The notes below the pieces were generated by a model. That model was given only the letters and a program-made list of their open reading frames with translations. It searched no databases and was not told the DNA's origin. The position numbers and the translations under genes were made by a program. Positions 3,726-64,000 of a stretch of 64,000 nt of DNA are shown here, one piece after another. Source of the DNA: Lytechinus pictus. Lineage: Eukaryota. Each line of letters opens with the position of its first letter. Position 1 is the stretch's first letter. The stretch lies in contig NC_087250.1 in NCBI RefSeq assembly GCF_037042905.1, forward strand, positions 24,678,001 to 24,742,000, written 5' to 3'.

Positions 3726-4516
3726 TGTCTCACCTGCATAGCAGAGTGAGACTATAGGCGCCGCTTTTCCGACGGCGACGGCGGCGGCGGCGTCAACACC
3801 AAATCTTAACCTGAGGTTAAGTTTTTGAAATGACAGCATAACTTAAAAAGTATATGGACCTAGTTCATGAAACTTGGCCATAAGGTTAATCAAGTATTAC
3901 TGAACATCCTGCCTGAGTTTCATGTCACATGACCAAGGTCAAAGGTCATTTAGGGTCAATGAACTTAGACCATGTTGGGGGAATCAACATCAAAATCTTA
4001 ACCTAAGGTTAAGTTTTTGAAATGTCATCATAACTTAGAAAATATATGGATCTGATTCATGAAACTTGGACATAATAGTAATCAAGTATTACTGAACATC
4101 CTGTGCAAGTTTCAGGTCACATGATCAAGGTCAAAGGTCATTTAGGGTCAATGAACTTTGGCCAAATTGGGGTATTTGTTGAATTACAGCCATAAATTTG
4201 AAAGTGTGTTGGTCTAGTTCATAAAACTTGGACATAATAGTAATCAAGTATCACTGAAAATCCTGTGCGAGTTTCAGGTCACATGATCAAGGTCAAAGGT
4301 CATGTAAGGTCAAAGAACTTTGGCCACGTTGGGGGTATTTGTTGAAGTGCCATCATATCTCTATAAGTGTATTGGTCTAGTTCATAAAACGTGGAAATAA
4401 GAGTAACCAAGTATCACTGAACATCTTGTGCGAGTTATAGTAGTTTTCAAAATCAGCACTGCTGCTATATTGAATCGCGTGATGCAGGTGAGACGGCCAG
4501 AGGCATTCCACTTGTT
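3726..4516 (+). mobile_element. Helentron-associated (HINE/DINE-1-like) non-autonomous element
   Basis: Subterminal IR GTCTCACCTGCAT (3727-3739)/ATGCAGGTGAGAC (4482-4494), short 5' IR, (GGC)n microsatellite, four internal tandem units of about 180 bp, T-rich insertion site. Confidence 0.75.
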
Positions 4517-9012: not shown

Positions 9013-11350
9013 TCAGTCGTTCCCCTCTTGGATGTTCAGGCCATGAGGTTGGGTGGTGCGAAGTCGTCTCATCCAGAGCTTCTCCCTGCTAGTACGGACT
9101 GAGTCAGGACGGGTACCTAAAGATTCGATGCCCTGTAGCATCATGTCAGTGATGGAGTGGTTGGGGAGGTTAAAATGGCGGCCAACTGGAGTGTCCAGCT
9201 TTGCTGTGTTGACGGTGGATCTGTGCCCGTAGAATCGTTTCTTGAGTGTGGTCTTGGTTTCCCCTATGTATTGTACCCTACAAACTCTGCAAGTGATGAG
9301 ATATACAACATTAGTGGTAGTGCATGTGATGTTGCCCTTGATTTGGTGAGACAGGCTGGTAGAGTTGCTGGTGAAAGTATCGCCCTCGTGAAGGTGTATT
9401 TCACATATGATGCACCTGTTGCTGGTGCATTTGAAGGTGCCATGCTGTATGGGAGAAGAATGGTTAGTGAGGGAGGGCACTTCAGCACGAACAATGAGGT
9501 CCCTGAGATTCGGTGGGCGTCGGTATGCTAGAAGGGGAGTATCGGGAACGGCCTGTTGGAGACGATCAGAAGTGTGTAAAATGTGGTGGTTATCAAACAG
9601 GATTTTGCGGAGAGGGGGTAGATTGGGATGGAAGGTGGTCACAAGCGGTATTCTGTCGGTGGTCTCCTTGTCACTTTTTGGTTTGAGAACTTCAGATCTG
9701 GGGAGAGAACGAACTTTGTTAATTGCCAGTTGGACTGCCCTGGCCCCGTGGCCCCTAGCACAGAGATGTTTCTGCAGATTCCTGGCATGGAAGGAAAAAT
9801 CAGGGTCCTCGGAGCAGATACGGCGAAGTCTGAGGGCTTGACTGTAAGCGATGCCGGTTTTGCAGTGACGGGGGTGGCAGCTGGATGAGTGGAGGTACTG
9901 GTGGGTATCTGTGGGTTTAGAGTATAGGGTAGTGGTGATACCATTAGACTTTTTCTGGACTGTAACATCAAGGAAGTGGGTTTCCTGTTGGGAGAAATCA
10001 GAAGTGAATTGGATGGTCCTGTGGAAGGAATTGATGTGGTCAATGAATGTATGGAGGCTGTCTTCATCCCTGGTCCAGATGAAGAAAATGTCGTCTATGT
10101 AACGCCACAAAATCCATGGGCGACAGGGGGCTGAATCTAACATCTGCTGTTCCAGCTTCGTCATGAAGAGACAGGCGAATGAAGGAGCCATCCGGGTGCC
10201 CATTGCTGTACCGAATATCTGTAGGTAGTGCTTGCCCATGAATGTGAAGTTGTTTTTTGTTAGTACATGAGACATCAGAGATTTGATATCGGATATGGGG
10301 GGACTGGAATGGCCACTGGCGGCCAAGGCTTCACATGATGCTTGGATACCTTCGTCGTGGGGAATGCTGGTGTACAGTGAAGAAACATCGAAAGTGCCGA
10401 TGATCGCAGTCTCGGGTATCTGGTCCTTGATGTCATTTAGTTTCCTGAGAAAGTCTGGAGTGTCGTGGATGTAAGAGGGTGCACGTGAGACAAGGGGCTT
10501 AATGTGGTAATCAACAAAAAGGGAGATGTTCTCTGTTGAGGAACCATTTCCTGAGAGGATGGGTCGACCGGGGTTGCCAGGTTTGTGGATCTTCGGGAGG
10601 AGATAGAAGCGGGCAGGTTTAGCATTAGTAGGGGAGAGAAATTTGTGGGCCTTCTCAGAGAGATACTCGCGTTCTTTCATGTCATTCAGTGTCGATTGGA
10701 TCTGTAGGGTCAGAATCAAGGAGTGCATAGTGAGATCGATTATTGAGATGTTTCATGGCTTCATCGATGTACTGCTGGCGGTCCATAACAACGACGGCTG
10801 ATCCTTTGTCTGCAGGCTTGATGATGATGTCGGACCTGTTTTTGAGTGATGAGAGAGCCTGGCGTTCTTCTCGAGGAAGGTTGTCATGTGCTCTGGTGTC
10901 GAGGGTATCTGTGGAGCGAACTTGGGATGAGACAGCTTGGATGTAAGTTTCAAGGGAAGGAACTCTATTCTTAGGTGGAATCCATGTGCTTTTCTTGTAG
11001 AAGGGCTCGGGATCAGAAGGGGGTGCATCTAAAAAGAACTCTTTGAGACGTATCCTGCGATAGAATGTAGAGAGGTCTTGGCTGAGAGCTATCTGTTCAA
11101 CTTCTGGTGGCGTGGGGCAAAACTTGAGACCTTTAGAGAGAAGAGAGGTTTCTGCTTGGGAGAGAGGGGAGGATGAGAGATTAACAACCAAATGGGGGAT
11201 ACATCATTGTTGTTGGTATGTCGTCTAAATCTGTTTGACCGTTGTCGCTTCTTTGTGAGGTTGCCTATTTTCTTGTTCCTGCGTTCAGTGAGGAGAGACC
11301 TGTGTTTAGAGAGATCAGATTCAATTTCATCATTATACTGAAGCCATTGG
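9013..11350 (-). pseudogene. PLE reverse transcriptase / GIY-YIG endonuclease ORF, broken by two frameshifts
   Basis: PLE motifs VVNLS, LSKGLKFCPTP, IKPADKG, YLLPKIHK, GRPI, FDVSSLYT, GTAMG, RYIDD, then a Cys-rich linker and VVYLITC..C...YIGET. Frame changes at about 11195 (C5 run on - strand) and about 10705 (between track ORFs 10682-11191 and 9013-10728). Confidence 0.9.
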
Positions 11351-15111: not shown

Positions 15112-15696
15112 GTGAGTCTACTTTCTAAAGGGAGATTATTATCTTGCTACAGAAGGGCTATTATATTTCTTTCACAGGTAATTTGATCAGGGGGTTAGTA
15201 TGAAAAAAAAAGGGTCATTTCCAGGATAATACAAACTGTTGCATTTATGATGTGCTACACTGGTTTTTCACCAAATGCCCATACTCTCAAATTAGTGAGC
15301 CTTTTTATAAAATGCAAGACTGATCGTAAATGCTTGTCAATATCGACAATGTAAATCTACGGAGGTCAGATTTACAAATATAACTAGCTGATGAGTCCAA
15401 GTGATTGAGAACTTGATTTAGAAGCTAAGAACATGTCACCAGTTGTGCATAAAATCATTCATAAATGAAAGTTTATGAAACAGCACCGAGATAGTTTGAA
15501 TCACATGTTTCAGGTAAACTTGCATAAGTTGACCTTCCATAAGTCGAGTATTCGCCATTTTTAGATATGATTATGCAAAACATATTTCTTTTAGGCCTAC
15601 ATGATATTTTTCTGAGTTCAAACAGATTTCTGTCGTCCTGCTAGAAACGATTTAGGCAGAGTCACTTCTATTTTTTTATTTTATTCATCTTTACAG

Positions 15697-16638
15697 ACCT
15701 CAAAAGAAGTCAAAGAACAAGCTATTCTTCCAATCCATTCGGCAGATCAGTTCAACCAATCAGACGGCAGGGAATTCAAATCTAGCCAATCGGGACCAAG
15801 ATCTTTCACATTTTTCCCATAAACATGCTACAACTGTCGCTACTCAACCAGGCTTTTCGAATGATCACCCTCATGTTGCTATTGCCGGCCCTACTACTGC
15901 TCCTCGAAAGGCAGGTCTCAAGCCTGGTTTAAAGTCTAACCTTCAGACTCAAGCTCCAGGAGTTTCCAGCTTTCAAATCAGACCATACGTTTCAAAAGCA
16001 AAGAGGAATGCAATGAGTGATGAAGCAAACCCTTCAAAACAACCAGATCCTAAACCTAATTCAGGAAAGCCAGAGACAACCTCATCCCCGGGTTCCTACA
16101 ATGAATCATCCCTTTCCATTCAAGATCAATTGTCTGGAGGTGAGGTTGAGAACTCGGTTGAATTCATAAGGGAATTCCAAAGTACACAGAACTCAGATGT
16201 TGGTGGCTATGCTAGCTCTACCAAGCTTAGACAGGTCAAAGATGAGAGGACCATGAAAGCAACTCCAGGCAGCTTCTTCCAGAGGGAATCGCCATGTGGC
16301 AACATGCAACAGGATTTCAGGTTAGATGTAGATGGTGGAGAGAAGGGTTCACGGCAGCATGGACAAGGACCTGCACCGAAGCCTGAGTTTGTGAGGGGTT
16401 TCCAGGGGTGTAGTCAAGGGACACACAAACGCCCTCAGGGTGTAAGGGGTATCCAGAGGTGTGGCCAAGGGACTTCCCTGGAGCCTCAGGGTTTGAAGGA
16501 TCTCCAGGACTGCAGAAGAGGGGCCAGAGTAGAGGAAGAAAGGACTAAACAAAGACCAGTAAAGACAAAGCAGAAGAGCAAATCAAAGATGACAGATGAA
16601 AAGAAGAAAGAAATCCAGAGATACTTAGAGCTTACCAG
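15697..16638 (+). CDS. SCNM1: SCNM1 coding exon 6 (942 nt, low-complexity/disordered, ends ...EIQRYLELT)
   Basis: TTACAG acceptor, open frame throughout (includes track ORF 16013-16648), AG|GTATGT donor at 16639, phase 2 joins the last exon. Confidence 0.85.
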
Positions 16639-17489
16639 GTATGTATGAAGTACCGAAGCAATGATGTCACAAAATACCTTTTTCACATTTCACTGGTTTT
16701 AATACCACATTTTGACGAAGCATTAAATACATCAGGCATTGAAATTTGTCGGGAATCGGTCTATGAGGGCCCAAAGTGTGACTGTATGTCCTCTCGCTTT
16801 GCCTCATTGAAATTAATGAGTGTAAATCTTCCAAACATAATGAAACAAGCTAGATACATTGATTTCAGAAGGGCCTATGCCTCACTCATTTTGCCATACC
16901 TTGGGCCACCGCGAACAATTTTTGTTAAATTTGGTGTGTGGATTTTAGTCATCATGCTGTCTGGACATTTGGTCATGAATATGCTGTATTGCACAAAAAG
17001 AAAATTATGATATCACACTGTGGGAGTCTATAATAACACTTTTCTAGTTGATGAATATCTTTATAAGTGGAGATGGAGGGTTGGACTTAGTCTGCTATGC
17101 AGACTCTGAATGGCTCGTGAAGTGGGATCTGCAGCTGGTTTGCGAAGCAAACCAGCCTGAAAGGGCGAGCGAAGCGAGCCATTTCAGAGTCTGCTTCTTC
17201 TTTGGAAATCTTGTTCCCACGGTCAAAATAAGTCCCACCCACCCAAAATTTCAGAGAGCTTTCATTGGATAACTTCATCTGTCTGTAAACCAAATTTTAT
17301 GACCACTGAGGAGTATAGATAATCCCCTACTTCAACCACAGAGCCATGAGCAGGGTTATTATGTAATACCCTCGCTCAGGCCATCAGACAGTGTTTACAT
17401 ATGACATTCCACTGAGCAGCTGCATGTATGGCCAAAACCTTGCTCCATGGCCCAAAATAGTGGATGGTTTTATCATAGCTCTCTATATA

Positions 17490-27320: not shown

Positions 27321-27685
27321 GTATGTGTATACTTGAATTTATTGTATGTTTCATAAAAATCTTGACATTTGATTGGCTGATGAACCATGTTACCATGGTA
27401 GTTGCAGTAGTTACAAATTTACAATAGTTGTAACTCATTGTGAAGTGGGTGCTAGAACATGCAAAGCATGCATAATTCATATATTTATCCTTCAGTTTTA
27501 CCTAAACTTGACCAATATCAATGAGAATGAGTCCATGTATTTTATATACATGTACTTGTATACTTATATACAGTAATTCAGTGAGATTTGACAGAGGAAG
27601 GAGGAGAACAACGAAAATAAGGAGGATGGAGGAGGAGAAGTACAAGAATATGAAAGAGAAGAATAAGGAGAAGAAGGACAAGAAA

Positions 27686-30190
27686 ACTTCAGTTTAATTT
27701 AACCAAAGCTCATAATTTGGTGTGTATGATACTAGCATGGATCCCAGGAAGCCTATTGATTTTGGGGTCAAAAGGTCAAAGTCACAGTGACATGTTTTTA
27801 TCTTACCCTTCTGCAGTCCTTGTAAACTCGATAATTTCAGTTTAATTTGACCTAGGCTCATATAATTTGGTGTGTATGATACTAGCATGTATCCCAGGAA
27901 GCCTAGTGATTTTGAGGTCCAATGGTCAAGGTCACAGTGACATGTTTTCATCTTACCCTTCTGCAGTCCTTGTAAAAGCGATAACTTCAGTTTAACTTAG
28001 TCGAGGCTCATATAATTTGGTGTGTATAATACTAGCATGGATCCCAGGAAACCTTTTGATTTGGAGGTCAAGGTCATATTGACATGTTTTCATCTTACCC
28101 TTCTAAAGTCTTTGTACTGTAAGTAAACGTGATATTTTCAGTTTAGCCATGGTTTAACTTAACCCTAATTCTCCCGGGGGGGGGGGGGGGGGGGGCTATA
28201 ATGTAAAAAAACAAAGAAATACATAAGAAATTCATAAAACAATAAAATACATAAGAAATTGATTTCCAAACCGAAGTTTTTAATTTCCGTTTTTAAGAAT
28301 GCTACAAAGAATATTTTTACCAAAAATAAGCATTTTAGGGGCTTTATTTAGTGAATTAGAGCAAAACATATGATTTATGCATAAATTAGCATAATTCATA
28401 TAAAATAAAATCTCATTATTTTGGAAAATTTTACCATACAGCCTTGTAGATTACATCGCACACTACCAGCGTGCAAATTTTTGGGTCGCTCGCGCGATCG
28501 GCGGCCGAGATCTTAAGGGGGGGCCATAATGGCCCCCCCCCCCTGGGAATGACAAGAATCAAAATACCCCGGGAGATTTAGGGTTAACCTAGGCTCAGCT
28601 AATTTGGTGTGTATGATACTTGCATGGATCCCAGGAAGCCTATAGATTTTGAGGTCAAAAGGTGGAAGGTCAAGGTCACAGTGACGTTTTCATCTTACCC
28701 TTCTGCAGTTTTTGTAAACGCGATACCTTCAGTTTAACTTAACCTCGGCTCATATAATTTGATGTGTATGATTATGATACTAGCATGGATCCCAAGAAGC
28801 CTTTTGATTTTGAGGTCAAGGTCATACTGACATGTTTTCATCTTCCCCTTCTAAAGTCTTTGTACAAATAAACGTGATATTTTCAGTTTAGCCATGGTTT
28901 AACTTAACCTAGGCTCAGCTAACTTGGTGTGTATGATACTAGCATGGATCCCAGGAAGCCTATTGATTTTTAGATAAAAGGTCAAGGTCACAGTGACGTT
29001 TTCATCTTACCCTTCTGCAGTCCTTGTAAACGCGATAACTTCAGTTCAACTTAGCCGAGGCTCATATAATTTGGTGTGTATAATACTAGCATGGATCCCA
29101 GGAAGCCTTTTGATTTTGAGGTCAAGGTCATACTGACATGTTTTCATCTTACCCTTCTAAAGTCTTTGTACAAGTAAATGCGATAACTTCAGTTTAACTT
29201 AGCCGAGGCTCATATAATTTGGTGTGTATGATACTAGCATGGATCCCAGGAAGCCTAGTGATTTTGAGGTCAAGGTCATACTGACATGTTTTCATCTTCC
29301 CCTTCTAAAGTCTTTGTACAAATAAACGTGATATTTTCAGTTTAGCCATGGTTTAACTTAACCTAGGCTCAGCTAACTTGGTGTGTATGATACTAGCATG
29401 GATCCCAGGAAGCCTATTGATTTTTAGATAAAAGGTCAAGGTCACAGTGACGTTTTCATCTTACCCTTCTGCAGTCCTTGTAAACGCGATAACTTCAGTT
29501 CAACTTAGCCGAGGCTCATATAATAATACTAGCATGGATCCCAGGAAGCCTTTTGATTTTGAGGTCAAGGTCATACTGACATGTTTTCATCTTACCCTTC
29601 TAAAGTCTTTGTACAAGTAATTGCGATAACTTCAGTTTAACTTAGCCGAGGCTCATATAATTTGGTGTGTATGATATTAGCATGGATCCCAGGAAGCCTA
29701 GTGATTTCGAGGTCAAGGTCATACTGACATGTTTTCATCTTACCCTTCTAAAGTCTTTGTACAAGTAAATGCGATAACTTCAGTTTAACTTAACCTAAGA
29801 TCATATAATTTGGTGTATATGATACTTGCATGGATCCCAGGAAGCCTATTGATTTTGAGGTCCAAAGGTCAAGGTCACAGTGCCAAGTTTTCATCATACC
29901 CTTCTGCAGTCCTTGTAAACACGATAACTTAAGTTTTAACTTAATTTAGGCTCATATAATTTGGCGTGTTTGGTACTTGCTTGGATCCCAGGAAGCCTAT
30001 TAGTATTGATTTTGGGGTCAAAAGATCAAAGGTCAAGGTCACAATGACATGTTATATCTTACCCTTCTGCAGTCCTTGTAAATGTGATAACTTCAGTTTA
30101 ACTTAACCAAGGCTCATATAAGTTGGTGTGTATGATGCTAGCAGAGATCCCAGGAATTCTATTGATTTTGAGTTCAGAAGGTCAAAGGTG
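27686..30190 (+). repeat. Tandem array of about 130-145 bp units (probably the interior of another HINE-like element)
   Basis: Recurrent GATACTAGCATGGATCCCAGGAAGCC...GAGGTCAAGGTCA...CATCTTACCCTTCT, about 15 copies with alternating variants. Confidence 0.9.
28163..28583. mobile_element. piggyBac-like MITE inserted in the tandem array
   Basis: TTAA|CCCTAATTCTCCCGGGG...CCCCGGGAGATTTAGGG|TTAA; neighbouring array units carry the single empty TTAA (AACTTAACCTAGG). Confidence 0.85.
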
Positions 30191-33276: not shown

Positions 33277-33966
33277 CTGGTTATTTGGCGTGTCTGGTGT
33301 ACCTGCACCTTGAAGGCCATGACAGGAAACCATTCACTGGCCATGGTGTTAAAACACCCTAGTTATACCTGTATAACACCCTGGGGACCACTGTGAAAGC
33401 ATGTAGTTCCTTTCTGCGCATGATCAAAAGATTCTACGCATGATCAGAGGAAGGTCATTTGTACTAACGTGACATGGTGGTTTAAAATCTCATGAGATAA
33501 GCACCAACTTTGATGTCTTGATTATTCATATATTCTTTTGAATAGTGGTTTTCATTTACATCCACAAAAAACAACAAGGCGTCCATGAACGACTGGTATT
33601 TCACAGTTTGCCAAGTACATTGTGCAACATGCTATGATATGCATTCAAAGTAGGAATGCAACAAATACCTTCATAAAGTGTTCATTGGTGTGCTATTCTA
33701 GTCACCTGGTCTATTCAATTTCTTCATCCTGCTATGTAAGGCAAGCTTACGTAATATCTTGCTTTGAAATCTGCCTATCATAATGAAAGAAATGAAAGGT
33801 CATTTGACTAAAATTGTCCATGATTAACTACGAACTGGTCTATAGTCGGGGAGAGATGTAGCATGAACCCCCCTCCCCGCATTGATCATTGGAAAAACTT
33901 GGATAATGACATATATCCAAATCTACACAGTGAAAACTATTATGGTGTTTATTGGTGTACATACAT

Positions 33967-36900
33967 ATGAGGCGCCGAATGTACCAATATTATATAGAAC
34001 AATTATTTGTTATATAATCATTATTTATTAAATAATAACTATTATTTATATATAATTTACATTTTATTTGTAAATAACTACTATTATATAAAATATCATT
34101 TCTAATTATTTATATATAATTCCAAGTAATACTTCATTATTTGTAAATAATAATAGTTCGACATTCCATTATTTATAAATAATGATTATTTGTTTTTCAT
34201 TATTTATAAATAATGATTATTTGTTTTTCATTATTTACAAATAATGATTATTTGTTTTTCATTATTTATAAATAATTTGTTGAGTTTTCCATTATTTATA
34301 AATAATGATTATTTGTTAAATAATGAAAACGTCTACTTCATTATTTATAAATAATTTTTTCGAGTGCACCATTATTCTCATTATTTATAAATAATCATTA
34401 TTTAATGTTCGAGTTTTCCATTATTTATAAATAATGATTATTTGTTAAATAATGAAAACGTCTACTTCATTATTTATAAATAATTTTTTCGAGTGCACCA
34501 TTATTCTCATTATTTATAAATAATCATTATTTAATGTTCGAGTTTTCCATTATTTATAAATAAAGATTATTTGTTAAATAATGAAATATCTACTTCATTA
34601 TTTATAAATAATAATTTTGTTTCAATATCCCATTATTTATAAATAATCATTATTTATAAACAATTTTTACAGTTTGCCATTATATACAAATAATCATTAT
34701 TTATATACAAATAACCATTATTTATTAAATAATGCCATTATTTATTAAATAATGCCATTATTTATTAAATAATGCCATTATTTATTAAATAATGCCATTA
34801 TTTATTAAATAATGGAAAACTCGCTATAACATGCAAATGTGGGACCGCCCATGATATGAATATTCATGATGCGATTTCCTTTTTCGTGATTTTTCTTCAC
34901 AAATTTTTGTCCATTTCCTCTTCATAATGACATTTCTTGAAGCAATTTTCTAGAGATATGGTCTGATTGTAATATTCTTCATTTTCTATATAACTTCGTC
35001 TTCGTAGAAATATCAAAAAGTGTAATTTTATTCGATTTTTCCTACAGTTCACAATCCCCATAGGCGCGCGTGTACGGTAGGGACAACCGGTGAATCGACG
35101 GAGTGCTCTTCATCGAAATACTACGTTGGTTGGTCCCCGGAAGTGGCAGGCGGAATTTAGCCCGAATCCTCGATGGAAGTCAATCAAGTGCATATGAGCT
35201 GAGAGAGTGAAATATCAGTGTACTTGTACAGGCCCTTCTACTTTTTATAAATATTTCTTGTTGCTTTTTTTGTTAAGTTAATTTTTCCTGGTATAGAGAT
35301 AAGTTTCAGTTCTAATAATGCACTTCAAATACATTTTGGAGTGTCTGTTTGAGGCGTTTGGGGCGATTTCACCCTGGCCCCAAAATGCTCGCAACGACAA
35401 TACGGGGGCATGATGACCCCTAAATTTTTAAAAACTTATTTTTCTATTAAAAATTATCACAAAATTCACCAAAAGTGTGCACGAAAGCCTTCGTATTTCA
35501 CTTTTAAAACTCCAAAAAGTGCCCAAATGACAAGCTTGGTCGCTTCGCTGTGTCGCTTTCAACTTGAGAACGTTTACGCGTCTGCTTCCCCCCCCCCCCT
35601 CCTCCGAAAGAAATTCTGTATACGGCCATGCTCTGAAGAGCCTGGCACATTGATTTATGTATACTTTCATTTTCATTATTTTTATCTCATTATCAACATG
35701 GCCTTACGCAGAATTTTTTCCAGGGGGGCCGGGGCCGGAGCATGACGCGCGTAAACTTTCTCAAAAAAATCTTGAAAGCGAGACAGCCACGGGACCAAGC
35801 CCAAATGACAAGCTTGGTCGCTTCGCTGTCTCGCTTTCAACTTGAGAACGTTTACACGCGTCTGCCCCCACCCCCCGAAAGAAATTCTGTGAACGGCCAT
35901 GCTCTAGTAAAGAGCCTGGCACATATTGATTTATGTATACTTCATTTTCATTATTTTTATCTCATTATCATCATGGCCTTACGCAGAATTTTTTCCGGGG
36001 GGGGGGGGGGGGGGGGTGGGGGGAGCAGGACGCGCGTGAACTTTCTCATAAAAATCTTGAAAAAGCGAAGCGACCAAGCTTGTCATTCGGGCTTGGTCCC
36101 GTGGCTGTCTCGCTTTCAAGATTTTTTTGAGAAAGTTTACGCGCGTCATGCTCCGGCCCCGGCCCCCCTGGAAAAAATTCTGCTTAAGGCCATGTTGATA
36201 ATGAGATAAAAATAATGAAAATGAAAGTATACATAAATCAATGTGCCAGGCTCTTCAGAGAATGGCCGTATACAGAATTTCTTTCGGAGGAGGGGGGGGG
36301 GGGAAGCAGACGCGTAAACGTTCTCAAGTTGAAAGCGACACAGCGAAGCGACCAAGCTTGTCATTTGGGCACTTTTTGGAGTTTTAAAAGTGAAATACGA
36401 AGGCTTTCGTGCACACTTTTGGTGAATTTTGTGATAATTTTCAATAGAAAAATAAGTTTTTAAAAATTTAGGGGTCATCATGCCCCCGTATTGTCGTTGC
36501 GAGCATTTTGGGGCCAGGGTGAAATCGCCCCAAACGCCTCAAACAGACACTCCAAAATGTATTTGAAGTGCATTATTAGAACTGAAACTTATCTCTATAC
36601 CAGGAAAAATTAACTTAACAACAAAAGCAACAAGAAATATTTATAAAAAGTAGAAGGGCCTGTACAAGTACACTGATATTTCACTCTCTCAGCTCATATG
36701 CACTTGATTGACTTCCATCGAGGATTCGGGCTAAATTCCGCCCGCCACTTCCGGGGACCAACCAACGTAGTATTTCGATGAAGAGCACTCCGTCGATTCA
36801 CCGGTTGTCCCTACCGTACACGCGCGCCTATGGGGATTGTGAACTGTAGGAAAAATCGAATAAAATTACACTTTTTGATATTTCTACGAAGACGAAGTTA

Positions 36901-37925
36901 TATAGAAAATGAAGAATATTACAATCAGACCATATCTCTAGAAAATTGCTTCAAGAAATGTCATTATGAAGAGGAAATGGACAAAAATTTGTGAAGAAAA
37001 ATCACGAAAAAGGAAATCGCATCATGAATATTCATATCATGGGCGGTCCCACATTTGCATGTTATAGCGAGTTTTCCATTATTTAATAAATAATGGCATT
37101 ATTTAATAAATAATGGCATTATTTAATAAATAATGGCATTATTTAATAAATAATGGCATTATTTAATAAATAATGGTTATTTGTATATAAATAATGATTA
37201 TTTGTATATAATGGCAAACTGTAAAAATTGTTTATAAATAATGATTATTTATAAATAATGGGATATTGAAACAAAATTATTATTTATAAATAATGAAGTA
37301 GATATTTCATTATTTAACAAATAATCTTTATTTATAAATAATGGAAAACTCGAACATTAAATAATGATTATTTATAAATAATGAGAATAATGGTGCACTC
37401 GAAAAAATTATTTATAAATAATGAAGTAGACGTTTTCATTATTTAACAAATAATCATTATTTATAAATAATGGAAAACTCGAACATTAAATAATGATTAT
37501 TTATAAATAATGAGAATAATGGTGCACTCGAAAAAATTATTTATAAATAATGAAGTAGACGTTTTCATTATTTAACAAATAATCATTATTTATAAATAAT
37601 GGAAAACTCAACAAATTATTTATAAATAATGAAAAACAAATAATCATTATTTGTAAATAATGAAAAACAAATAATCATTATTTATAAATAATGAAAAACA
37701 AATAATCATTATTTATAAATAATGGAATGTCGAACTATTATTATTTACAAATAATGAAGTATTACTTGGAATTATATATAAATAATTAGAAATGATATTT
37801 TATATAATAGTAGTTATTTACAAATAAAATGTAAATTATATATAAATAATAGTTATTATTTAATAAATAATGATATATATAACAAATAATTGTTCTATAT
37901 AATATTGGTACATTCGGCGCCTCAT
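33967..37925. mobile_element. 3.96-kb foldback (giant palindrome) element
   Basis: Arms 33967-35827 and 36064-37925 are near-identical reverse complements with a 236-bp spacer; ACATACAT direct repeat at 33959-33966 and 37926-37933. Confidence 0.92.
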
Positions 37926-39179
37926 ACATACATGTATAGGGACACGCCAGTCATTTTAATTTGTTGTTATTTCAACACCTATGGATGTTATTGTTATTTC
38001 AACACCTTTGGTTGTTACTTTTACACCCTTAAGTGTTGTATCAATCTCTTTGGTGTAACTTTAACATCTCAGGGTGTGTTCCTCTATGAACACCAACTGG
38101 TGTCGGCTTTTAACACCCTGTTTTTAAAGTGTTCACATATCTGAATAATTCAGTGATTTATCGATGCATGGTGCTATGTAGTTGAAGATGAGTTAACTTG
38201 TGAAAATTTATAACCTTCAAAGTTTTCTTATTTCATGTTTTTGCAGAGCTCTACATGAAATTGGTATATATACACATGAACATATTCTGTTATACCATGT
38301 GATACAAAGTGAGAATAGAAAGTAGAATATTGAATCCCTGCTAATCATAACTTGCCATCAGATTCATATTGTTTATCTTCCTTTAGTCCAGTCAATCTAG
38401 CCAGAATAGGGGGGCAACCCACCACTAATTGCAACACGAGATATTCCACTGAAATGCTTTCCAGGAAGGTCCCCTAAACAACATACTAAAAGTCCCAAGA
38501 AATCCAAGCAGTGGAAATTTATGAAATTTGCATATTATGCAAATTAGCCATGAAAAATTAGAAAAAGAAGGGAAATAATCCAAAGAGTACAAATTAAATG
38601 TCCAAAATAATTTGATTTGAATGGAAATTCATGATAAATAACTGAAGTCAATGTTTTCAATCAAAAGTGCAAAAATTTCTACCTCATTTGCATATTATGC
38701 AAATAAGCATCCTTATATGGAAAAAATGTCAAGATATTGTGATTTTTCTCATATAGACTGCTTCAAAACATTTCATTAATGTTGACATTAATATGCTACT
38801 ATATAACTAAGCATGAGAATTCATCCCAATGCCTGAAAATTAATTTGCATATTATGCAAATTAGCCATTTAAAAAAATAGAAAATGAGAAATGAGAAAAA
38901 TTAAATGTCCACAGCAAGTAATTTTGAACATGATGAATAAATAAGTTCAATGTCTATATTTAAAAGAGCTAGCAAATCTGCCTCATTTGCATATTATGCA
39001 AATAAGTATCCTTATATGGAAAATGTCAAGAAATTTAGATTTTTATCACATTGACTGCAGTGAAAACATTTAAGTTTTTTCAAATTAATATGCTGCTATC
39101 ACTAAGCATTCAAATCTATCCTAATATGATTTATATTCAAGGAAAAATACTTGAAATATGTTCTTCGCTTCTTAAGCGT

Positions 39180-41600
39180 TAGTCTGACAAGATGATGGGA
39201 TTGGCAAGAACAAAGCACAGTATTTGAATTGGTGTGTAGTTTGTTAGAGTTGACAACCCTTTCTTATATGGATGGGAACGACTTAGACTTTCTTGAAATT
39301 TCACCGCATAAACATGATAAAGGGAGGCCAGGAAAAGCAAACTTATGGCAGGTAAGATCTGATGAGTAGTCTCATTAAGAAGTGCAGCAGAGATTCCGTC
39401 TGGCCTCCCAGGACCAAAATCCAGTTGAAACCAATTAGAGCAAAACCAATTGAAACCAGTTGGCCAACTGGTTTCAATAGGGAAATTGGAACAACTGGAA
39501 CCAATTGAAACCAGTTGCCAACTGATTCCAGTTAAAACCAATTGGGCAACTGGAACCAGTTGGCAATTGGTTTCAATTGGTTCCAGTTGAAAACAATTAA
39601 GCAACCAGTTGGCAACTGGTTTCAATTGGTTCCAGTTGTTCCAATTTCCCTATTAAAACCAGTTAATCCAATTGGAGGTAACTGGTTTCAATTGGTTCCA
39701 GTTGAAACCAATTGGAGGCAACTGGTTTCAACTGGAACCAGTTGAAACTAATTGGTTTCCAACTGGATCCAATTGGAACTTCCAGTTGGAATGACTTAAT
39801 TAGTTACAAATTAATTAGATTTTGCACTAACTATTGCTCATGCCAACAAAGAAGCAGTGCTATATGTCTATAATACCAATGTAAAGGGCATTGATAAATA
39901 GACTTTCATTATGTATATATATTACATGACGTACAGAGCTTCAAATATATGTATTTGTATTTGATGTAATTTGGTAACAGTTAGTGGTGTACTAATTATC
40001 TTATAATCTGTTTTAATTATAATCTATGACATTTATGAACATGGTTTTCACTCCTAAGCATTCTAAACACTTATCTGAAACAAGTATGGTACTTGAAATA
40101 GAAAATAATTAAATAGATACATTTTAAATGATGATGAATCACATAAAACATTAATCTGTGCACACTGGCAGATAATATGCAAATTAACTGGTTTCAATTG
40201 GAACCAGTTGGGTAACTGGAAAATTTCCAATTGGAAACCAATTGGAAGTCATTTCCAGTTACCCAACTGGATCCAGTTAGGATTTCCAGTTACCCAACTG
40301 GTTCCAGTTAGGATTTCCAGTTACCCAACTGGTTCCAGTTAGGATTTCCAGTTACCCAACTGGTTCCAGTTAGAAATCATTTCCAGTTGGAAGTCATTTC
40401 CAGTTACCCAACTGGTTCCAGTTAGGATTTCCAGTTACCCAACTGGTTCCAGTTAGAAATCATTTCCAGTTGGAAGTCATTTCCAGTTACCCAACTGGTT
40501 CCAGTTAGGATTTCCAGTTACCCAACTGGTTCCAGTAAGAAATCATTTCCAGTCGGAAGTCATTTCCAGTTACCCAACTGGTTCCAGTTAGGATTTCCAG
40601 TTACCCAACTGGTTCCAGTTAGGATTTCCAGTTACCCAACTGGTTCCAGTTAGAAATCATTTCCAGTTGGAAGTCATTTCCAGTTACCCAACTGGTTCCA
40701 GTTAGGATTTCCAGTTACCCAACTGGTTCCAGTTAGGATTTCCAGTTGCCCAACGGGTTCCAGTTAGGATTTCCAGTTGCCCAACTGGTTTCAATTGGTT
40801 TCAACTGGAAATTGTTATATTCCAGTTAAAACCAATTGAAACCAGTTGAAACCAATTGAAACCGAATGAAACCAGTTGGAAATCCAACTGGTTTCAATTG
40901 GATTTTGGTCCTGGGCTAGTAGCTTCATGCAGGTTGTTTTCTTTAACAATTTCTTCAGTAGTCTGGCTACACCTGCTTGACTAAACAATATGTTATCTGG
41001 CCATATCTGGGTCAGGACTGGGTCCCAGGACTTCAGCGTCATCATCATCATGATCAGTGGTGAATACTAAGACTAAAAATCTTTGCCTTCCTTTAATAAT
41101 GATATTCCAATGTAGTCATAGCTATTGATATTAAGGGCTCCCAACATGCTAATTGTTACAGCCTGGATCATTGTCAATCCGGTCAACAAATTATGTATAA
41201 TAGGCTTGACTACAAACCCTCTTATGGTCCTCTTTAATGCATTGTAGCAATTCTGAGCTTTACCTTACTGATGCTTTTGGAGCTCTAAAATGTGCAAGCC
41301 TTCCTAGACTTTCTCTAAAACTCTTGACATCTTCCGACACAACTTATGTCCATTCTCTCATTGAGGCAACTTGTGTCGGAAGAAGACATGGTTAATGGTG
41401 TGTTCTTGTTAAAGTCCTCTTGATTGGCATTCAGTCTCCTATGCTCGACTTGTCGGATTTCAGTACAGAGAGTTGTATGATTGTCCAAAGTACATCTGCA
41501 TGACACTATTAAAGTCAGCATTCCTCCAGAAGAACATCCTTAGTCGTACCATAAAATGTTTATTCCTCTGGATAACCTCACAGTATACCCATGAGTAGCA
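39180..41600 (-). pseudogene. Degenerate LINE ORF2 fragment (CR1/L2-like), split by the 39407-40915 insertion
   Basis: GVARLLKKL...(AT)RPDGISAALLNE...ISLLFLASL...KKG...NYTPI resembles the pre-RT segment of non-LTR ORF2; many disablements; extent approximate. Confidence 0.65.
39407..40915. mobile_element. Non-autonomous TIR element with subterminal repeats (EnSpm/CACTA-like)
   Basis: TIR CCCAGGACCAAAATCCA...TGGATTTTGGTCCTGGG, 2-bp CT duplication, arrays of CCAGTT/AACTGG/CCAATTGG motifs including a 31-bp tandem unit at about 40250-40790. Confidence 0.8.
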
Positions 41601-42590: not shown

Positions 42591-43924
42591 CCAGGAGTTG
42601 CTAGCGTGGACTATACTCGCAAGAAACGCAAAGTCTCTATACAAAGTCAAGAAGAGAGCAAGACTTGGATGGAAATAATGAAACATTCAAGCAGTGGGAT
42701 CCATGTAGAATTGACTCATCATTGTACAATATGAGTGGGGTAACTGCTCGTGACAAAACTCAATATCAACCAAGCAAGAAGTGTAGGGAAGGTCATCATG
42801 GTTAATACACATAATCTACATGGAATTTTAGAGGAAAGTATCACTTATGTGTTTCCTTGAATATTTATAACATGTCGGATGCTTATTTGCATAATATGTA
42901 AATTATACTTCAGATATTAAGCTGATTATTAATGTATTTGCCATTCTTAGTGATCAAATCATATTGATCTAGACTGAAATGTTTTCATAACTGTTTTTGT
43001 GAGAAAAATTAAAATTTCTGGATTTTTTCCATATAAAGATGCTCATATATATGCAAATGAGGTAGATTTATTTACGATTTTTTTATCTAAAACATAAATA
43101 AATTTGTAAAACTTGTCATGGGCTTCAGTTCAATTCGTATTGATTTCCAATATTTGGATTATTTTCCTTATTTGTAATTTATTATGGCTAATTTGCATAA
43201 AATGCAAATTTTGTGATTTTCCCATATGCTTGTATATTTAAGGACTTTTAATATGGTGTTTAGGAAACCTTCCTGTAAGGTATTGCCATATTCCAATTTC
43301 AATAGATAATCTACTTGTAATTTTTGAGGGATGTATCACCAGTGTGTTTTCTTGAATATTTATAACATGTTAGATACTTTTATTTGCATAATATGCAAAT
43401 TACACTACAGACACTAAGCTGAATACAAATGTATTCAACGTCCTTAGTGATAGCAGCATGTAAATTCCAACATTAATGAAATTTTTAAGCAGATAATGAG
43501 AGAAAAATCACAATACCTACACATTTTTCCATATAAGGATGCTTATTTGCATATTATGCAAATGAGGTAGATTTTTTGCACTTTTGACAAAAAACATTGA
43601 ATACAGGTATTCATCATGAATTTTTGCTCAAATTAAATTGTTTTGGACACTCAATTTGTAATCGTTGGGCTATTTTCCTTATTTTTCTTACTTTTTATGG
43701 CTAATTTGCATAATATGCAAATTTAATAAATTTCCACTGCTTGGATTTCTTGGGACTTTTAGTATGTTGTTTAGGGGATCTTCCTTGAAAGCATTGCAGT
43801 GGAATATCTCGTGTTGCAATTAGTGGTGGGTCAAACCCTATATTGACTGGACTACTTTCCATTAGTGAAGAAGCTTGATGTGGATTCACGTAGGCAATAT
43901 CTTTGTTTTTTATCAGAGTTTTTG

Positions 43925-44602
43925 TCTTACAAGTTTTTGAAATGTCATCATAACTTAGAAAATATATGGACCTAGTTCATGAAACTTGGACATACATAAG
44001 GTTAATCAAGTATCACTGAACATCCTGCATGAGTTTCACGTCACATGACCAAGGTCAAAGGTCATTTAGGGTCAATGAACTTTGGCCGAATTGGGGGTAT
44101 CTCTAATCTGTTGAATTACCATCATAACTTTAAAAGTTTATGGATCTGATTCATGAAACTTGGACATAATAGTAATCAAGTATTACTGAACATCCTGTGG
44201 AAGATTCAGGTCACATGATCAAGGTCAAAGGTCATTTAGGGTCAATGAACTTTGGCCAAATGGGGGGTAATTGTTGAATTACCATCATAACTTTGAAAGT
44301 ATGTTGGTCTAGTTCATAAAACTTGGACATAAGAGTAATCAAGTATCACTGAACATCCTGTGCGCATTTTAGGTCGCATGACCAAAGTCAAAGGTCAATT
44401 AACTTTGGCCATAATGGGGGTATCTATTGAATTACCATCAAAACTTTGAAAGTTTATGGATCTGACTCGTGAAACTTGGACATAAGAGTTATCAAGTATC
44501 ACTGAACATCTTGTGCGAGTTATAGTAGTTTTCAAAGTCAGCACAGCTGCTATATTGAATCGCGTGATGCAGGTGAGACCGCCAGAGGCATTCCACTTGT
44601 TC
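43925..44602 (+). mobile_element. 5'-truncated copy of the 3726-4516 element
   Basis: Same tandem units and near-identical 3' end (...GATGCAGGTGAGAC.GCCAGAGGCATTCCACTTGTT). Further fragments at about 46735-46950 (5' end) and about 26635-26780. Confidence 0.8.
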
Positions 44603-59496: not shown

Positions 59497-60947
59497 GGTT
59501 GTCTGTCATGATTTTTCATTCAGTGTCGGCTAATATGTATGGAATGAATCTTCTAGATATGATTGATAATCTTCATCATAGACATCATAGGAATAAATTT
59601 TGACCATTGCTAAATGTGATTATTAATGTGGTGATGACAATCGCGGATGATTATAATGATGGTGGTGATAATGCGAAACGGAAAATACGAAATGAACTAA
59701 TGAGCACATAAAACGCCTTAAAATCTCCTCAAAATCTTCATACGATTTTACCAAAATTGGTTTTCCAAAATAACGCAATGAAAGGCGCCCTAATTTTCAC
59801 AGCAGCTAATTTTAATCGACAGTACTTTAATGTTTTTATGCAAAATCTTTTTTTTTATTCTTTGTACTGTCAGCAATTTTGTTTAATGATTTCAATCAAG
59901 AATTTTTACAACATCATTGGGAATGAATTTTCACAGAATACTTGAAAATTTATAGGTGATACTTTCTGAAAAATAAAATATCTTTAGTATTTTCATTCAA
60001 AATTTCTGCTAATTTCAATAATTTTTAATGAGAAGTTTCAGAATGCTACAATTTCACAGCATTCACTTCAATACTCATCAGTGATGTATTTGATAAAAGA
60101 ATTAAGTATAATTTTTTTGGGGTAAATGTTTGCAAAATCTCTGCAAATTTCTAAACACTTCACATAATATTTTCCGTCAAGAATTTTTAATATCCATATA
60201 TTAATTGTGTAAGACTTCGATATTTACTTGAAAATTCTTTCTTGAAGGTTTTTGCTGAAAAACGTCAGGTAAAAGATTCAAATACTGGCAATTTTCCTAC
60301 AAAAATTCGGGAAAATGTGTAATTAATACCTCTTAACGCGCGAAGCGAGTTAATGAGAGGTTATCTCAGGTCAGACTAGCTGGACAACAACATAGCCCGC
60401 CAGCGGTACGTAACAGGTGTTTTACAAGGAAGGAGCCTGGTCAGGCGAATTCCTTTGCCCTGGCGGAGATATGTTGCGATGCCAAATATGGTATTTTGTC
60501 GGACTTCACGAGGAGGCGTGGCCAAAAAATGTTGCGTTGCGAATTTTGGTATTTTCGGACATTACAAGGAGGCGTGGCTAAAAATGCTACGTCGCGTTAG
60601 CTGACGTGGTAATTTCGGGAGGGGGCAAAAGCCAATTTCTAACAAGTTAGCATTCTTCTTCGTGGAGTCGATTTGAAAGCATCTTCCATCTCAATTCACC
60701 TGTCTTGTGCAACATACTTCCTGTATTTTTGTTATATTTCGTTGAACTCTTTAGTTGTGATCCTTCTAATTGTCTTTCTTACCCATTCATATATCTTAAA
60801 GAACGCTTCGCAGTTGAGAATTTATTCTTTTATCTAGGAACATACCTGTATATTTGTGTTATATCCGTTTGTTGGACTTTTGAGCTGTTAGGAGTCACAG
60901 TTTGCTCTAAGGACTTTTCAATTTCGCCACCCCTGCATTATTCAATC

Positions 60948-62057
60948 ATGCCCAAGGTTAAGCCAGGCAAAAAGTTAAGTCAGAGGAAGTCTACTCGTCG
61001 TTCGGTCCGAGATGCCGCCAGCCAGCCTTCTCCTGTCGACCTCGAGACAGACGTCGGCCAAGTTTTTACTTCTACGCAGAGCCCAGCTGCTGGAAGTTCG
61101 GCGTCGACAACCAACGGTGAGTTCGGGACAATGGGGGGCTCCTGGCCTCTTGTGACTTCTCCACAAGATCCGGTCATTCCCCAAATTCAATCCCAAGCTT
61201 CTCCTTCTATCCCTCCTGCCCATGTAGTTGAGGGGCTTAATAGTCATGATAATTTTACACCAGCCCCCAACCCTCCTTTTCCTACGCTGTCTGCGCAGCC
61301 AGATATGCTTAGCTGTGTGTGTGATGATTTGGGCGGGGAGGTGCCTTCCAGTGTTAAGGAGAAGATTTGGAAAGGTGAATTTGTAGAGTTAGGTGGATTA
61401 CTAAAAAGGGAAAGCTTAAGTGAGGAAAGTTCCCAGTTGCAGGCCTTCAGCCTTTGTGCCACCGGGTCCGCTTTAATGCTTCGCCCCCAAAGCAAGGCTC
61501 CGGTGATCGCCAGCATAGAACAGTGGACATCTGCGTTCATTATTTACGCGTCTATATACTTGGAGCGACACTGTATGCGTGCGCGCGAGCTCCTCAAGTA
61601 TATGGATATCGTTCGCTCTATTGTGCGTTTTGGGGGTTTCAATTGTCGGGCCTATGACATTCAATTTCGGTTACGTCAGGCCTGTCATCCACATCGTTCC
61701 TGGGCTGTCATAGACACCGAGCTATGGCTGACAGTAGCTTCGACGCCCGGTCGAGCAGCGTTTTCGTCTTTTGGGGGTAACCAGCCCTTTCGGCCATACG
61801 ACCGGTCGTTTCGGCGGGGTAGTTTCCCATCCTCAGGATATGCCAACAGACAAGGGGCAATTCGGGCCCCTGGCGCCGCGCCTGCCCCCTTCCGCTCCTC
61901 ACCAGTCTGTTTCGCCTTTAACGCTGGGTCATGCCAACGCACCGCCTGTCGTTATGCTCACCGGTGCGGAAAATGCTCCTCAGCAGCGCATGGCTCACAC
62001 GCCTGCAACTCTGCCGCTGCAATCGCCAAACAGAAGCCTAGCTCCAACTCCAATTAA
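60948..62057 (+). CDS. Ngaro-like Gag (ORF1), 369 aa from ATG 60948
   Basis: KEKIWKGEFVEL, IEQWTSAFIIYASIY, YDIQFR motifs and C-terminal Cys/His cluster CFAFNAGSCQRTACRYAHRCGKCSSAAHGSHAC. Confidence 0.85.
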   Translation: MPKVKPGKKLSQRKSTRRSVRDAASQPSPVDLETDVGQVFTSTQSPAAGSSASTTNGEFGTMGGSWPLVTSPQDPVIPQIQSQASPSIPPAHVVEGLNSHDNFTPAPNPPFPTLSAQPDMLSCVCDDLGGEVPSSVKEKIWKGEFVELGGLLKRESLSEESSQLQAFSLCATGSALMLRPQSKAPVIASIEQWTSAFIIYASIYLERHCMRARELLKYMDIVRSIVRFGGFNCRAYDIQFRLRQACHPHRSWAVIDTELWLTVASTPGRAAFSSFGGNQPFRPYDRSFRRGSFPSSGYANRQGAIRAPGAAPAPFRSSPVCFAFNAGSCQRTACRYAHRCGKCSSAAHGSHACNSAAAIAKQKPSSNSN

Positions 62058-63621
62058 ACTTGGCAGCATGCTCCCATTTCTTAGACGGCACCATAATCAA
62101 CATAATGCAGCTTTTCTGATTTCTGGTTTTAGGTTGGGTTTTTCATTGGGTTTCACAGGCGAGCGTCGCTCTGTGTTCTCGCGTAATTTGAAATCTGCTA
62201 GGGAGCATAGGGACATGCTGTTGGAGAAAGTTGGTAAGGAAGTTAGTTTAGGGAGAATGTCGGGTCCTTTCCAAGACCCGCCTTTCGATAACTTTCGCTG
62301 CTCCCCGGTAGGGCTCGTCCCCAAGCGAAATCCGGGAGAATTCCGTCTAATTCAGCATCTATCTTCTCCTCGGGGGGCTTCGGTTAATGACCACATTGAT
62401 TCCGATTTGTGTTCCGTGAATTACACTTCATTTGACAAGGCGGTTGATCTCGTTGCTCGCTTGGGAGCTAGTGCTCTCATGGGAAAAACCGATATAAAAT
62501 CCGCTTTTCGCTTACTACCAGTGAATCCCTCCGATTTTGACCTTCTGGGGTTTTGCATTGATGGCGCGTATTACTTTGATAAATGCTTGCCAATGGGCTG
62601 CTCAATTTCATGTGCCCATTTTGAGCGTTTTAGCACTTTTCTTGAGTCATGTTGCCGTGAAATTGCGAATTCAGAGCAAATTTTGCATTATTTGGATGAT
62701 TTCTTTTTTGTTGGCGCAACACGGCAGGAATGTCGTTCCTTGATGTATCATTTTAAGGCGATGTGCGAGGTTTTTGGCGTCCCGATAGCGGAGGAGAAGA
62801 CTGAGGGGCCCGTTCCCACTATCATATTTGTAGGGCTTGAAATCGACGCGGCTGAGCAGAGAGTTCGGGTACCCAAGGAGAAAGTAAACGTGTTACAGGC
62901 AATGCTCATTGATTTTGTTAAGAAAGATAAGCTCTCGTTGCGGCAGTTGCAGTCGCTAATTGGCAGCCTTAATTTCGTGTGTAAAGCCGTGGCTCCCGGA
63001 AGAGCCTTCCTAAGGAGACTTATCGATCTTACTAAAGGGGTCCGCACCTCAAACCACCGGATAAGGCTTTCACGCGGCGCAAAAGAGGACATGCAGGCCT
63101 GGCTTACGTTTCTGTCCGATTTCAATGGCACAGTTATGTTTTCACACTCAACATGGGTAACTAATGCTCATTTTCAGTTCTTTACTGACGCTGCGGGTAG
63201 CATTGGCTTTGGTATATCCTTCCAGGATAAGTGGGCTCAAGGGAAATGGCCAGCTGAAATACTGGAGAAGAATTATTCCATCGCTTTTCTAGAGCTTTTC
63301 CCAATAGTAGTCGGTATACGTATGTGGGGGGCTCTTCTAGCTAATTCTAAGGTCTTATTTTGGTCAGATAATCAAACAGTTGTTCATGTTGTTAATTCCT
63401 TAACTTCGAAATGTCCTAGTGTAATGAAACTGGTTCGTTTGCTTGTAGTTCTTTGTTTGGAACATAATATTATGTTCAAAGCACGTTACGTGCCAGGCTC
63501 TCGCAATGAAAAGGCTGATGCCCTCTCTCGTTTTCAGATGGACAGGTTTCGCAGGTTAGCACCAGGCGCAGATCTGGCTGGCAGCAAGCTTCCCGCCCAT
63601 CTTTGGAGCAGCTTCATATAG
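61771..63621 (+). CDS. Reverse transcriptase + RNase H (ORF2)
   Basis: SPVGLVPK, FRLIQHLS, KTDIKSAFR, LPMG, HYLDDF (RT); FTDA, LEL, SDN, NEKADALSR (RNase H); uninterrupted 616 codons. True start uncertain. Confidence 0.93.
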   Translation: MGVTSPFGHTTGRFGGVVSHPQDMPTDKGQFGPLAPRLPPSAPHQSVSPLTLGHANAPPVVMLTGAENAPQQRMAHTPATLPLQSPNRSLAPTPIKLGSMLPFLRRHHNQHNAAFLISGFRLGFSLGFTGERRSVFSRNLKSAREHRDMLLEKVGKEVSLGRMSGPFQDPPFDNFRCSPVGLVPKRNPGEFRLIQHLSSPRGASVNDHIDSDLCSVNYTSFDKAVDLVARLGASALMGKTDIKSAFRLLPVNPSDFDLLGFCIDGAYYFDKCLPMGCSISCAHFERFSTFLESCCREIANSEQILHYLDDFFFVGATRQECRSLMYHFKAMCEVFGVPIAEEKTEGPVPTIIFVGLEIDAAEQRVRVPKEKVNVLQAMLIDFVKKDKLSLRQLQSLIGSLNFVCKAVAPGRAFLRRLIDLTKGVRTSNHRIRLSRGAKEDMQAWLTFLSDFNGTVMFSHSTWVTNAHFQFFTDAAGSIGFGISFQDKWAQGKWPAEILEKNYSIAFLELFPIVVGIRMWGALLANSKVLFWSDNQTVVHVVNSLTSKCPSVMKLVRLLVVLCLEHNIMFKARYVPGSRNEKADALSRFQMDRFRRLAPGADLAGSKLPAHLWSSFI

Positions 63622-64000
63622 AGAGAGAGCATCTGTTGTTTTCTTCGCGGGCGCCCGGCACTCATCATACTTATAGGAACGCTTGGTCTGTGTTTAAGCA
63701 GTTTCGGCTGCAATATCATTATGATATAAGTATACGTCCTGACGTTGAGCAGGTCGCTCAATTTATTGCTTATCTCTCCTGGAATGGGTATGCGGGGGCA
63801 ACAATAAGTACATATATATCAGGCCTGGCTTTTACGATGCAAACATTGGGTTGGCCTGATGTGACTGACGCGTTTGTAATCCGGCGGCTGGTAGACGGGT
63901 GCAGGCGGAAAAATGCTCGCCGTGATACCCGGTGTCCCATAACCCTGCCTATTCTCAAATCCATCCTAAATTCATTGACTCACGTATGCGTTAATACGTA
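63519..64000 (+). CDS. Tyrosine recombinase (ORF3), N-terminal part
   Basis: My translation: frame open from 63519 (after TGA 63516-63518) to window end, ...SRAPGTHHTYRNAWSVFKQF...FIAYLS...ATISTYISGL...RRLVDGCRR...DTRCPIT..., typical of a DIRS/Ngaro YR N-terminus. Catalytic residues lie outside the window. Confidence 0.82.

Follow-up and report, generated by a model that had tools for sequence, protein, structure and literature searches.

The window examined here, a 64,000-nucleotide stretch of the Lytechinus pictus genome, contains a real, near-perfect palindrome: a multi-copy and non-autonomous foldback element whose ends are probably of IS3EU/GingerRoot type. In structure the element is a foldback: its inverted repeats are long and modular, combine a repeated outer domain with an inner domain, and make up 94% of its length. 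Its membership in IS3EU is likely, judging from two features of its ends, the TA..TA termini and a 6-bp target-site duplication. The foldback reading put forward in an earlier note on this DNA is therefore upheld for an element that is non-autonomous, multi-copy and modular in its arms. The positions of its parts and of the insertion site are collected in Table 1.

Table 1. Parts of the palindromic element and of its insertion site, numbered from the first letter of the window
Feature	Position	Strand	Basis or remark
Left piece of older host repeat	33925..33959	+	CAC..GTG ends, AACACC subrepeats; split by the element
Left CATACA duplication of the target site, 6 bp (favoured reading)	33960..33965	+	Exact repeat at 37927-37932
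Left arm (terminal inverted repeat), begins TATGAGG	33966..35827	+	Arm alignment
Non-repetitive tip, 25 bp	33966..33990	+	44% G+C against 14.8% adjoining; presumed transposase cleavage end
Left outer domain	33991..34814	+	Arrays of palindromic AT-rich cores; 31-, 129- and 20-bp higher-order units
Left inner domain	34815..35520	+	706 bp, without internal repeats; 35457-35492 common to another very abundant repeat
Unit U1, 278 bp, itself an imperfect hairpin	35521..35798	+	RNA fold
Central unit U2	35799..36091	+	Oriented like U1, from which it has diverged; about 29 bp inverted at its ends; contains the 236-bp spacer
Mirror copy of U1 in right arm	36093..36370	-	276 of 278 letters as in U1
Right inner domain	36371..37076	-	Mirror of 34815-35520; one X7 contig covers 36306-37106 with 5 differences
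Right outer domain	37077..37901	-	Arm alignment and tandem arrays
Right arm, final letters CCTCATA	36064..37926	-	Arm alignment; records of X1, X24 and X7 break off at 37926
Right target-site duplication CATACA	37927..37932	+	Exact repeat of left copy
Right piece of older host repeat	37933..38132	+	Summed X10 depth of 84107 at 37979-38064

Global alignment of the two halves gave arms of 1862 and 1863 bp separated by a 236-bp spacer (35828-36063) and differing by 6 substitutions and one 1-bp indel (7/1863, or 0.38%). The palindrome is thus as nearly perfect as had been claimed by eye, with arms of about 1.86 kb and few mismatches, and its outermost bases (33966 and 37926, TATGAGG..CCTCATA) lie one base beyond the boundary first proposed. 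The 25-bp tip matches the window at two places only, which are the two ends of the element. The outer domain, described earlier as AT-rich and made of a palindromic 16-mer, is indeed composed in this way: its 824 bp have a G+C content of 14.8%, and the 16-mer has 11 exact copies in the left arm and none in the window outside the element. When the core is relaxed, 23 copies can be counted in the outer domain, and its arrays comprise six units of 31 bp, three of 129 bp and seven of 20 bp. The inner domain proved to be non-repetitive, also as claimed. The three promoter-like motifs named for it are present once each, but the rest of the window has 28 further octamers and 8 further GC boxes; taken as a signal these motifs are background-like and carry little weight. 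Finally, the unit of about 280 bp, with the spacer inside another copy of it, was recovered as a 278-bp unit and a third, diverged copy that holds the spacer and matches the unit at 250 positions in 308 alignment columns.

The element carries no recognizable transposase. No Pfam family was found in the five open reading frames of the element that were scanned, in agreement with what had been noted from the letters alone, and an integrase-like DDE transposase was absent from both the element and the 90 window frames scanned (of 122 with at least 75 amino acids); its absence from the element is as expected for a non-autonomous copy. A Pfam scan of 84 further window frames was blank for all 84. 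Within the 64 kb no further copy of the element was found. Matches to the terminus pattern in one metagenome contig, one viral contig and three prokaryote genomes were attributed to chance: they are isolated, span 18-26 bases in DNA of 48-68% G+C and show no further similarity.

Evidence for other copies comes from public sequencing runs. The run search listed 24 runs from 11 studies under four organism labels, 20 of them with part of the stretch, and recorded no RNA run among the holders of the stretch. Four of the 24 (X1, X7, X10 and X24) were compared over 35829-38400, a region covering the spacer, the right arm and the right flank, and matching records were present in all four (309 in X24, 877 in X10, and 22 and 11 in the other two). 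The element is consequently multi-copy, and the case raised earlier, that no other copies exist, does not apply. The 877 records of X10 are contigs and include several joints between modules, for example from 36049 to 36898 on opposite strands. Such joints show other module orders in a related organism and, together with mixed flanks at 37926, point to copies that are dispersed and structurally variable. At the junction of the centre, records of U1 type cover the same letters in the other runs. A 36-bp piece of the inner domain (36399-36434, mirrored at 35457-35492) is common to another very abundant repeat; X10 depth reached 35548 in that bin, and loose ends were seen on both sides in X1 and X10. 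Since this piece is shared with an abundant repeat, the inner domain seems to hold captured repeat fragments.

Comparison of runs also provides a record of exchange between the arms. The X7 contig over 36306-37106 departs from the right arm by one A>T, one C>A and three T>C changes. One of these places, 36622, has a letter private to the right arm. At the other four (36598, 36709, 36859 and 36937) the two arms are alike and differ from the contig, and at the first three of them the other letter is also found, at full depth, in X1, in X24 and in X10, which is more divergent. Because the same new letter stands in both arms, the contigs seen show that changes have, by all appearances, been copied between arms in this lineage. 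The homogenised arms proposed earlier accord with these four letters, which are common to both arms and absent from the contigs of other runs, contigs being prone to drop rare variants. The four letters would date the copying to the lineage, not to the present insertion, and may mark an unseen subfamily; the route was presumably gene conversion or fold-back repair. Where the arms differ from each other, the other runs agree with the left arm at five places (36088, 36184, 36261, 36622 and 37875), and at 36442 and 36743, where the left arm has a private letter, X7 agrees with the right arm.

This last pattern indicates that both arms have a history of their own, and it bears directly on the suspicion that sequencing or assembly produced the mirror structure by folding back one real arm. 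No matching record spans the whole stretch, as might be anticipated if the mirror were spurious. However, an artefact would not be expected to leave seven differences between arms that side with different runs (five with the left arm, two with the right), nor two different flanks that share a direct duplication and between them give the host repeat in its proper order, nor a central unit that is a third and diverged copy. We consequently regard an artefact as very improbable.

The window alone leaves the length of the target-site duplication ambiguous, given that exact duplications of 6 bp (CATACA or TACATA), 8 bp, 4 bp and 2 bp (TA, AT) all fit, CATACA with ends TAT..ATA, and TACATA or TA with ends TGA..TCA. 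No exact duplication of 9 or 10 bp was present at any boundary tried. The ends of other copies are more informative. Among the loose ends listed, one X1 contig and 24 X24 reads (agreement 0.58, with mixed flanks and T as the consensus first letter) depart behind 37926; one X7 contig stops exactly at 37926, and one X10 contig matches on to 37930. A cluster at 37925 may lie among the unlisted loose ends. Copies that break off after ...CCTCATA suggest that the element ends in TA..TA, and this disfavours 8 bp because the copies share the last A, at 37926. The duplication is thus most likely the 6-bp CATACA, as read from one copy, the only one with both flanks. An alternative that we hold unlikely is an element with ends TGAGG..CCTCA and a TA duplication, Tc1/mariner-like or of another TA-targeting superfamily, inserted in a CATA microsatellite that mimics the 6 bp. 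The TA duplication is exact at 33968/37924, the insertion site is rich in CATA and TACA, and all copies would end in CCTCA followed by TA, as observed. The 6-bp repeat would then be a coincidence, one in which the same 6-mer flanks both sides, seen at 9 of the 4587 TA sites of the window. Furthermore, the X1 contig runs for 29 letters beyond 37926; if contigs are assembled from 31-letter words and stop where paths merge, the other path would share the last A and not TA. TGAGG is also not known as a usual Tc1/mariner end.

Less probable still, in our view, is the version preferred in the earlier note, in which ATGAGG..CCTCAT ends and an 8-bp duplication define a TU-like foldback or one of Mutator, hAT or P type. 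Its factual part stands: ACATACAT adjoins both sides exactly, with corresponding ends ATG..CAT, and a match between two random places of the window has a chance of 7e-5 for an 8-mer, compared with 0.00046 for a 6-mer. TU1 reportedly has an 8-bp duplication, and the 29-letter overhang of X1 would be expected if that flank began with A. In addition, passages of the literature place most foldbacks in Mutator and give duplications of 8-10 bp for Tetris (PMC4079207) and 9 bp for the nematode Tm1 (PMC3169594). What speaks against an 8-bp duplication is the point of divergence: flanks should part from 37925, yet the listed loose ends of X24 and X1 and the end of the X7 contig all lie at 37926, so the 8-10-bp duplication typical of Mutator/Foldback is not what we find. 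The 8-mer can instead be decomposed into the 6-mer, an A that happens to stand in the flank, and a T or A that is the last letter of the element itself. The ends of other copies at 37926 hence favour CATACA, which had been mentioned earlier as a second possible reading.

The insertion lies within an older repeat of the host, which the element splits and which spans 33925-38132. The right part of this repeat is extremely abundant in X10, and it may itself be a MITE-like element. Farther into the right flank, 38151-38322 had depth in X24 only and 38323-38400 in none of the four runs, and these runs gave no empty site.

The ends of the element can be compared with those described for IS3EU. For IS3EU families the termini are given as TA..TA and the duplication as mostly 6 bp, and 72 of 77 GingerRoot elements have TA..TA (excerpts of PMC10045372 and PMC6839031). 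Fungal IS3EU termini are given as TAYGG..CCRTA in an excerpt of PMC12730594; the terminus TATGA shares four of the five letters of TAYGG, a fungal consensus set here against a sea urchin host. Non-autonomous elements are assigned in Repbase by a match of the terminal 11 bases to an autonomous family, as stated in part of PMC4455052. Deuterostome members of IS3EU appear, beside an oyster entry, as acorn worm and zebrafish entries in the IS481EU supplement alignment, and the repeats annotated in a sea-urchin genome include IS3EU (PMC11316814, in excerpt). The element is like IS3EU/GingerRoot in its TA..TA termini, 6-bp duplication and terminal inverted repeats. In GingerRoot, however, inverted repeats of 100-150 bp surround a transposase or gene fragments, whereas those of the element measure 1.86 kb and are modular, and no transposase is seen between them.

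The body of the element finds its counterparts elsewhere. The foldback form is said to have arisen independently in several superfamilies (passages of PMC4079207, PMC3169594 and PMC2775673), among them the P type, to which Galileo belongs with its 7-bp duplication (PMC2775673, in part). With Drosophila FB, Galileo, Tetris and Tm1 the element shares long, repetitive and modular inverted repeats with outer and inner domains, a noncoding nature and rearranged forms. It differs from these elements of Mutator or P type in having IS3EU-type ends and a middle that is one more copy of a unit of the arms. We found no link between IS3EU and foldbacks in the literature covered by the search, which lay outside Repbase and subscription journals; one paper contains both words, unlinked. 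The TU elements of sea urchins have a repetitive outer and a non-repetitive inner domain and occur as modular variants, and they are said to have an 8-bp duplication and a distinct middle segment. Set beside them, the element is alike in its sea-urchin host, in the repetitive outer and non-repetitive inner domain and in modular variants (the X10 joints), and unlike them in its 6-bp reading and in having no distinct middle. TU (Liebermann et al. 1983) is itself cited as a foldback in a passage of PMC4079207.

How the middle came to be a unit copy can be approached through the unit itself. The RNA fold of the 278-bp unit has an energy of -112.3 kcal/mol (z = -9.07), and none of 200 shuffles was as stable. 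Loss of the centre by recombination between units is feasible because each unit is self-complementary; the 3' half of the forward unit resembles the 5' half of the reverse unit as a direct repeat, so that a deletion between units would yield the present centre. A gain fits as well, with a single central hairpin unit being duplicated and then mirrored by conversion of the arms. In the central copy the inverted ends, about 29 bp long, are almost intact, and the copies of the arms are without the last part of theirs. Five weak Rfam matches to miRNA precursors, all far below gathering scores, are explained by the hairpin shape and were rejected.

We propose that a transposase of IS3EU/GingerRoot type, with an integrase-like DDE domain, would move the element in trans. 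This enzyme would bind the arrayed palindromic cores of the outer domain and cut at the 25-bp tips, and a 6-bp staggered cut would leave CATACA twice. The centre could be rebuilt at the self-complementary 278-bp unit, through a deletion from one unit to another or through the doubling of a single unit. A read-through transcript of a copy might then form a rod as long as 1.86 kb and be edited by ADAR. A bolder extension, which we offer tentatively and think rather unlikely, holds that IS3EU/GingerRoot elements of sea urchins propagate as near-complete palindromes, fold-back synthesis primed at the self-complementary inner unit rebuilding one arm from the other during transposition or gap repair. 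If true, it would provide a foldback route in a superfamily for which the literature searched shows no such link, and would supply ADAR steadily with double-stranded RNA of kilobase length.

Transcripts of the family are in line with the last step of this scheme. In the RNA run X24, 309 of 8.7 million reads match the stretch and both strands are covered. A>G (70) and T>C (43) changes account for 113 of the 159 changed places, a count that also takes in the flank, some 470 bases that include the host repeat. The same two classes make up 36 of 105 in the DNA run X10; X1 has 5 such places among 20, and X7 has 3 among 5. The difference between X24 and X10, two runs with different organism labels, had a Fisher p of 4e-9, and of 0.003 on transitions alone, for changed places that are not independent and for comparison DNA that comes from individuals other than the animal of X24. 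Among the 40 of 220 variants listed, most X24 changes also occur in DNA. One A>G change, at 36061, was set aside as editing, being a unit variant with the letter of the left arm. The spectrum of the family RNA nevertheless looks A-to-I-like, the pattern expected if fold-back transcripts are edited by ADAR, in reads that need not derive from the present locus. It lends support to the capacity for hairpin RNA that had been suspected from the palindrome.

Precedents for such editing exist. In excerpts of PMC5625713 and PMC9989829, RNA of a palindromic Harbinger repeat of Xenopus tropicalis is A-to-I edited without need of a neighbouring copy, and 86% of editing sites in Strongylocentrotus purpuratus lie in repeats. 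Like the frog repeat, the element is a self-complementary repeat of a DNA transposon with RNA of A-to-I type. The two differ in that the frog repeat measures about 200 bp and the element could form a 1.86-kb stem, and in that editing is read here from a mismatch spectrum without matched DNA.

Foldbacks have mostly been connected with transposases of the Mutator and P types, and one of IS3EU type would add a third, integrase-like source in a superfamily whose structure and function are called largely unexplored in part of PMC11934779. The element also offers a compact system in which to study conversion between arms and the editing of a kilobase hairpin by ADAR. Its novelty is limited, as foldbacks of sea urchins have been known since 1983, RNA editing of palindromic transposons is known, and the 64 kb contain two further foldbacks unrelated to the element. 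The element is a tidy variant of known foldbacks and not a new kind of system.

One of these two neighbours, at 1296-3710, is a foldback-like element unrelated to the palindrome, with AGATGG..CCATCT ends, a possible 3-bp ATA duplication and an inverted repeat that runs for about 200 bp before the fourth mismatch; its arms are unequal in length and consist of a 57-bp repeat whose core is palindromic. The other, at 39407-40915, has CCC..GGG ends and a 2-bp duplication (CT on both sides); its arms consist of CAACTGG/CCAGTT subrepeats arranged as 31- and 83-bp arrays, and we take it to resemble the non-autonomous elements of EnSpm/CACTA type in animals. Two retroelements are also present in this repeat-rich animal DNA, their names being our reading of the domains. 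A Penelope-type element on the minus strand (9013-11203) has a frame of 579 amino acids with reverse transcriptase and GIY-YIG domains, and an upstream frame of 173 amino acids is probably its shifted start. A DIRS-type element on the plus strand (60651-63998) has overlapping frames of 468 and 627 amino acids, the latter with reverse transcriptase/RNase H, and one that continues past the window end; among named relatives, its protein is closest to those of Lytechinus variegatus (66%), L. pictus (61%) and Diadema setosum (59%), a result that most likely marks the host as a sea urchin.

The remaining observations concern one open frame and several repeats. A plus-strand frame of 330 amino acids (15656-16648) looks like a large low-complexity exon; it contained no Pfam family, and a homology search with 15698-16639 returned 0 of 1807 candidates among longer proteins. 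Related arrays of a 150-190-bp repeat with AAGGTCA motifs occupy 27685-30176, 3793-4436 and 43946-44515. Two 299-bp units at 38525-39099 each have palindromic, octamer-like cores (TTTGCATA/TATGCAAA), and the segment 38417-38861 recurs in inverted orientation at 43382-43831.
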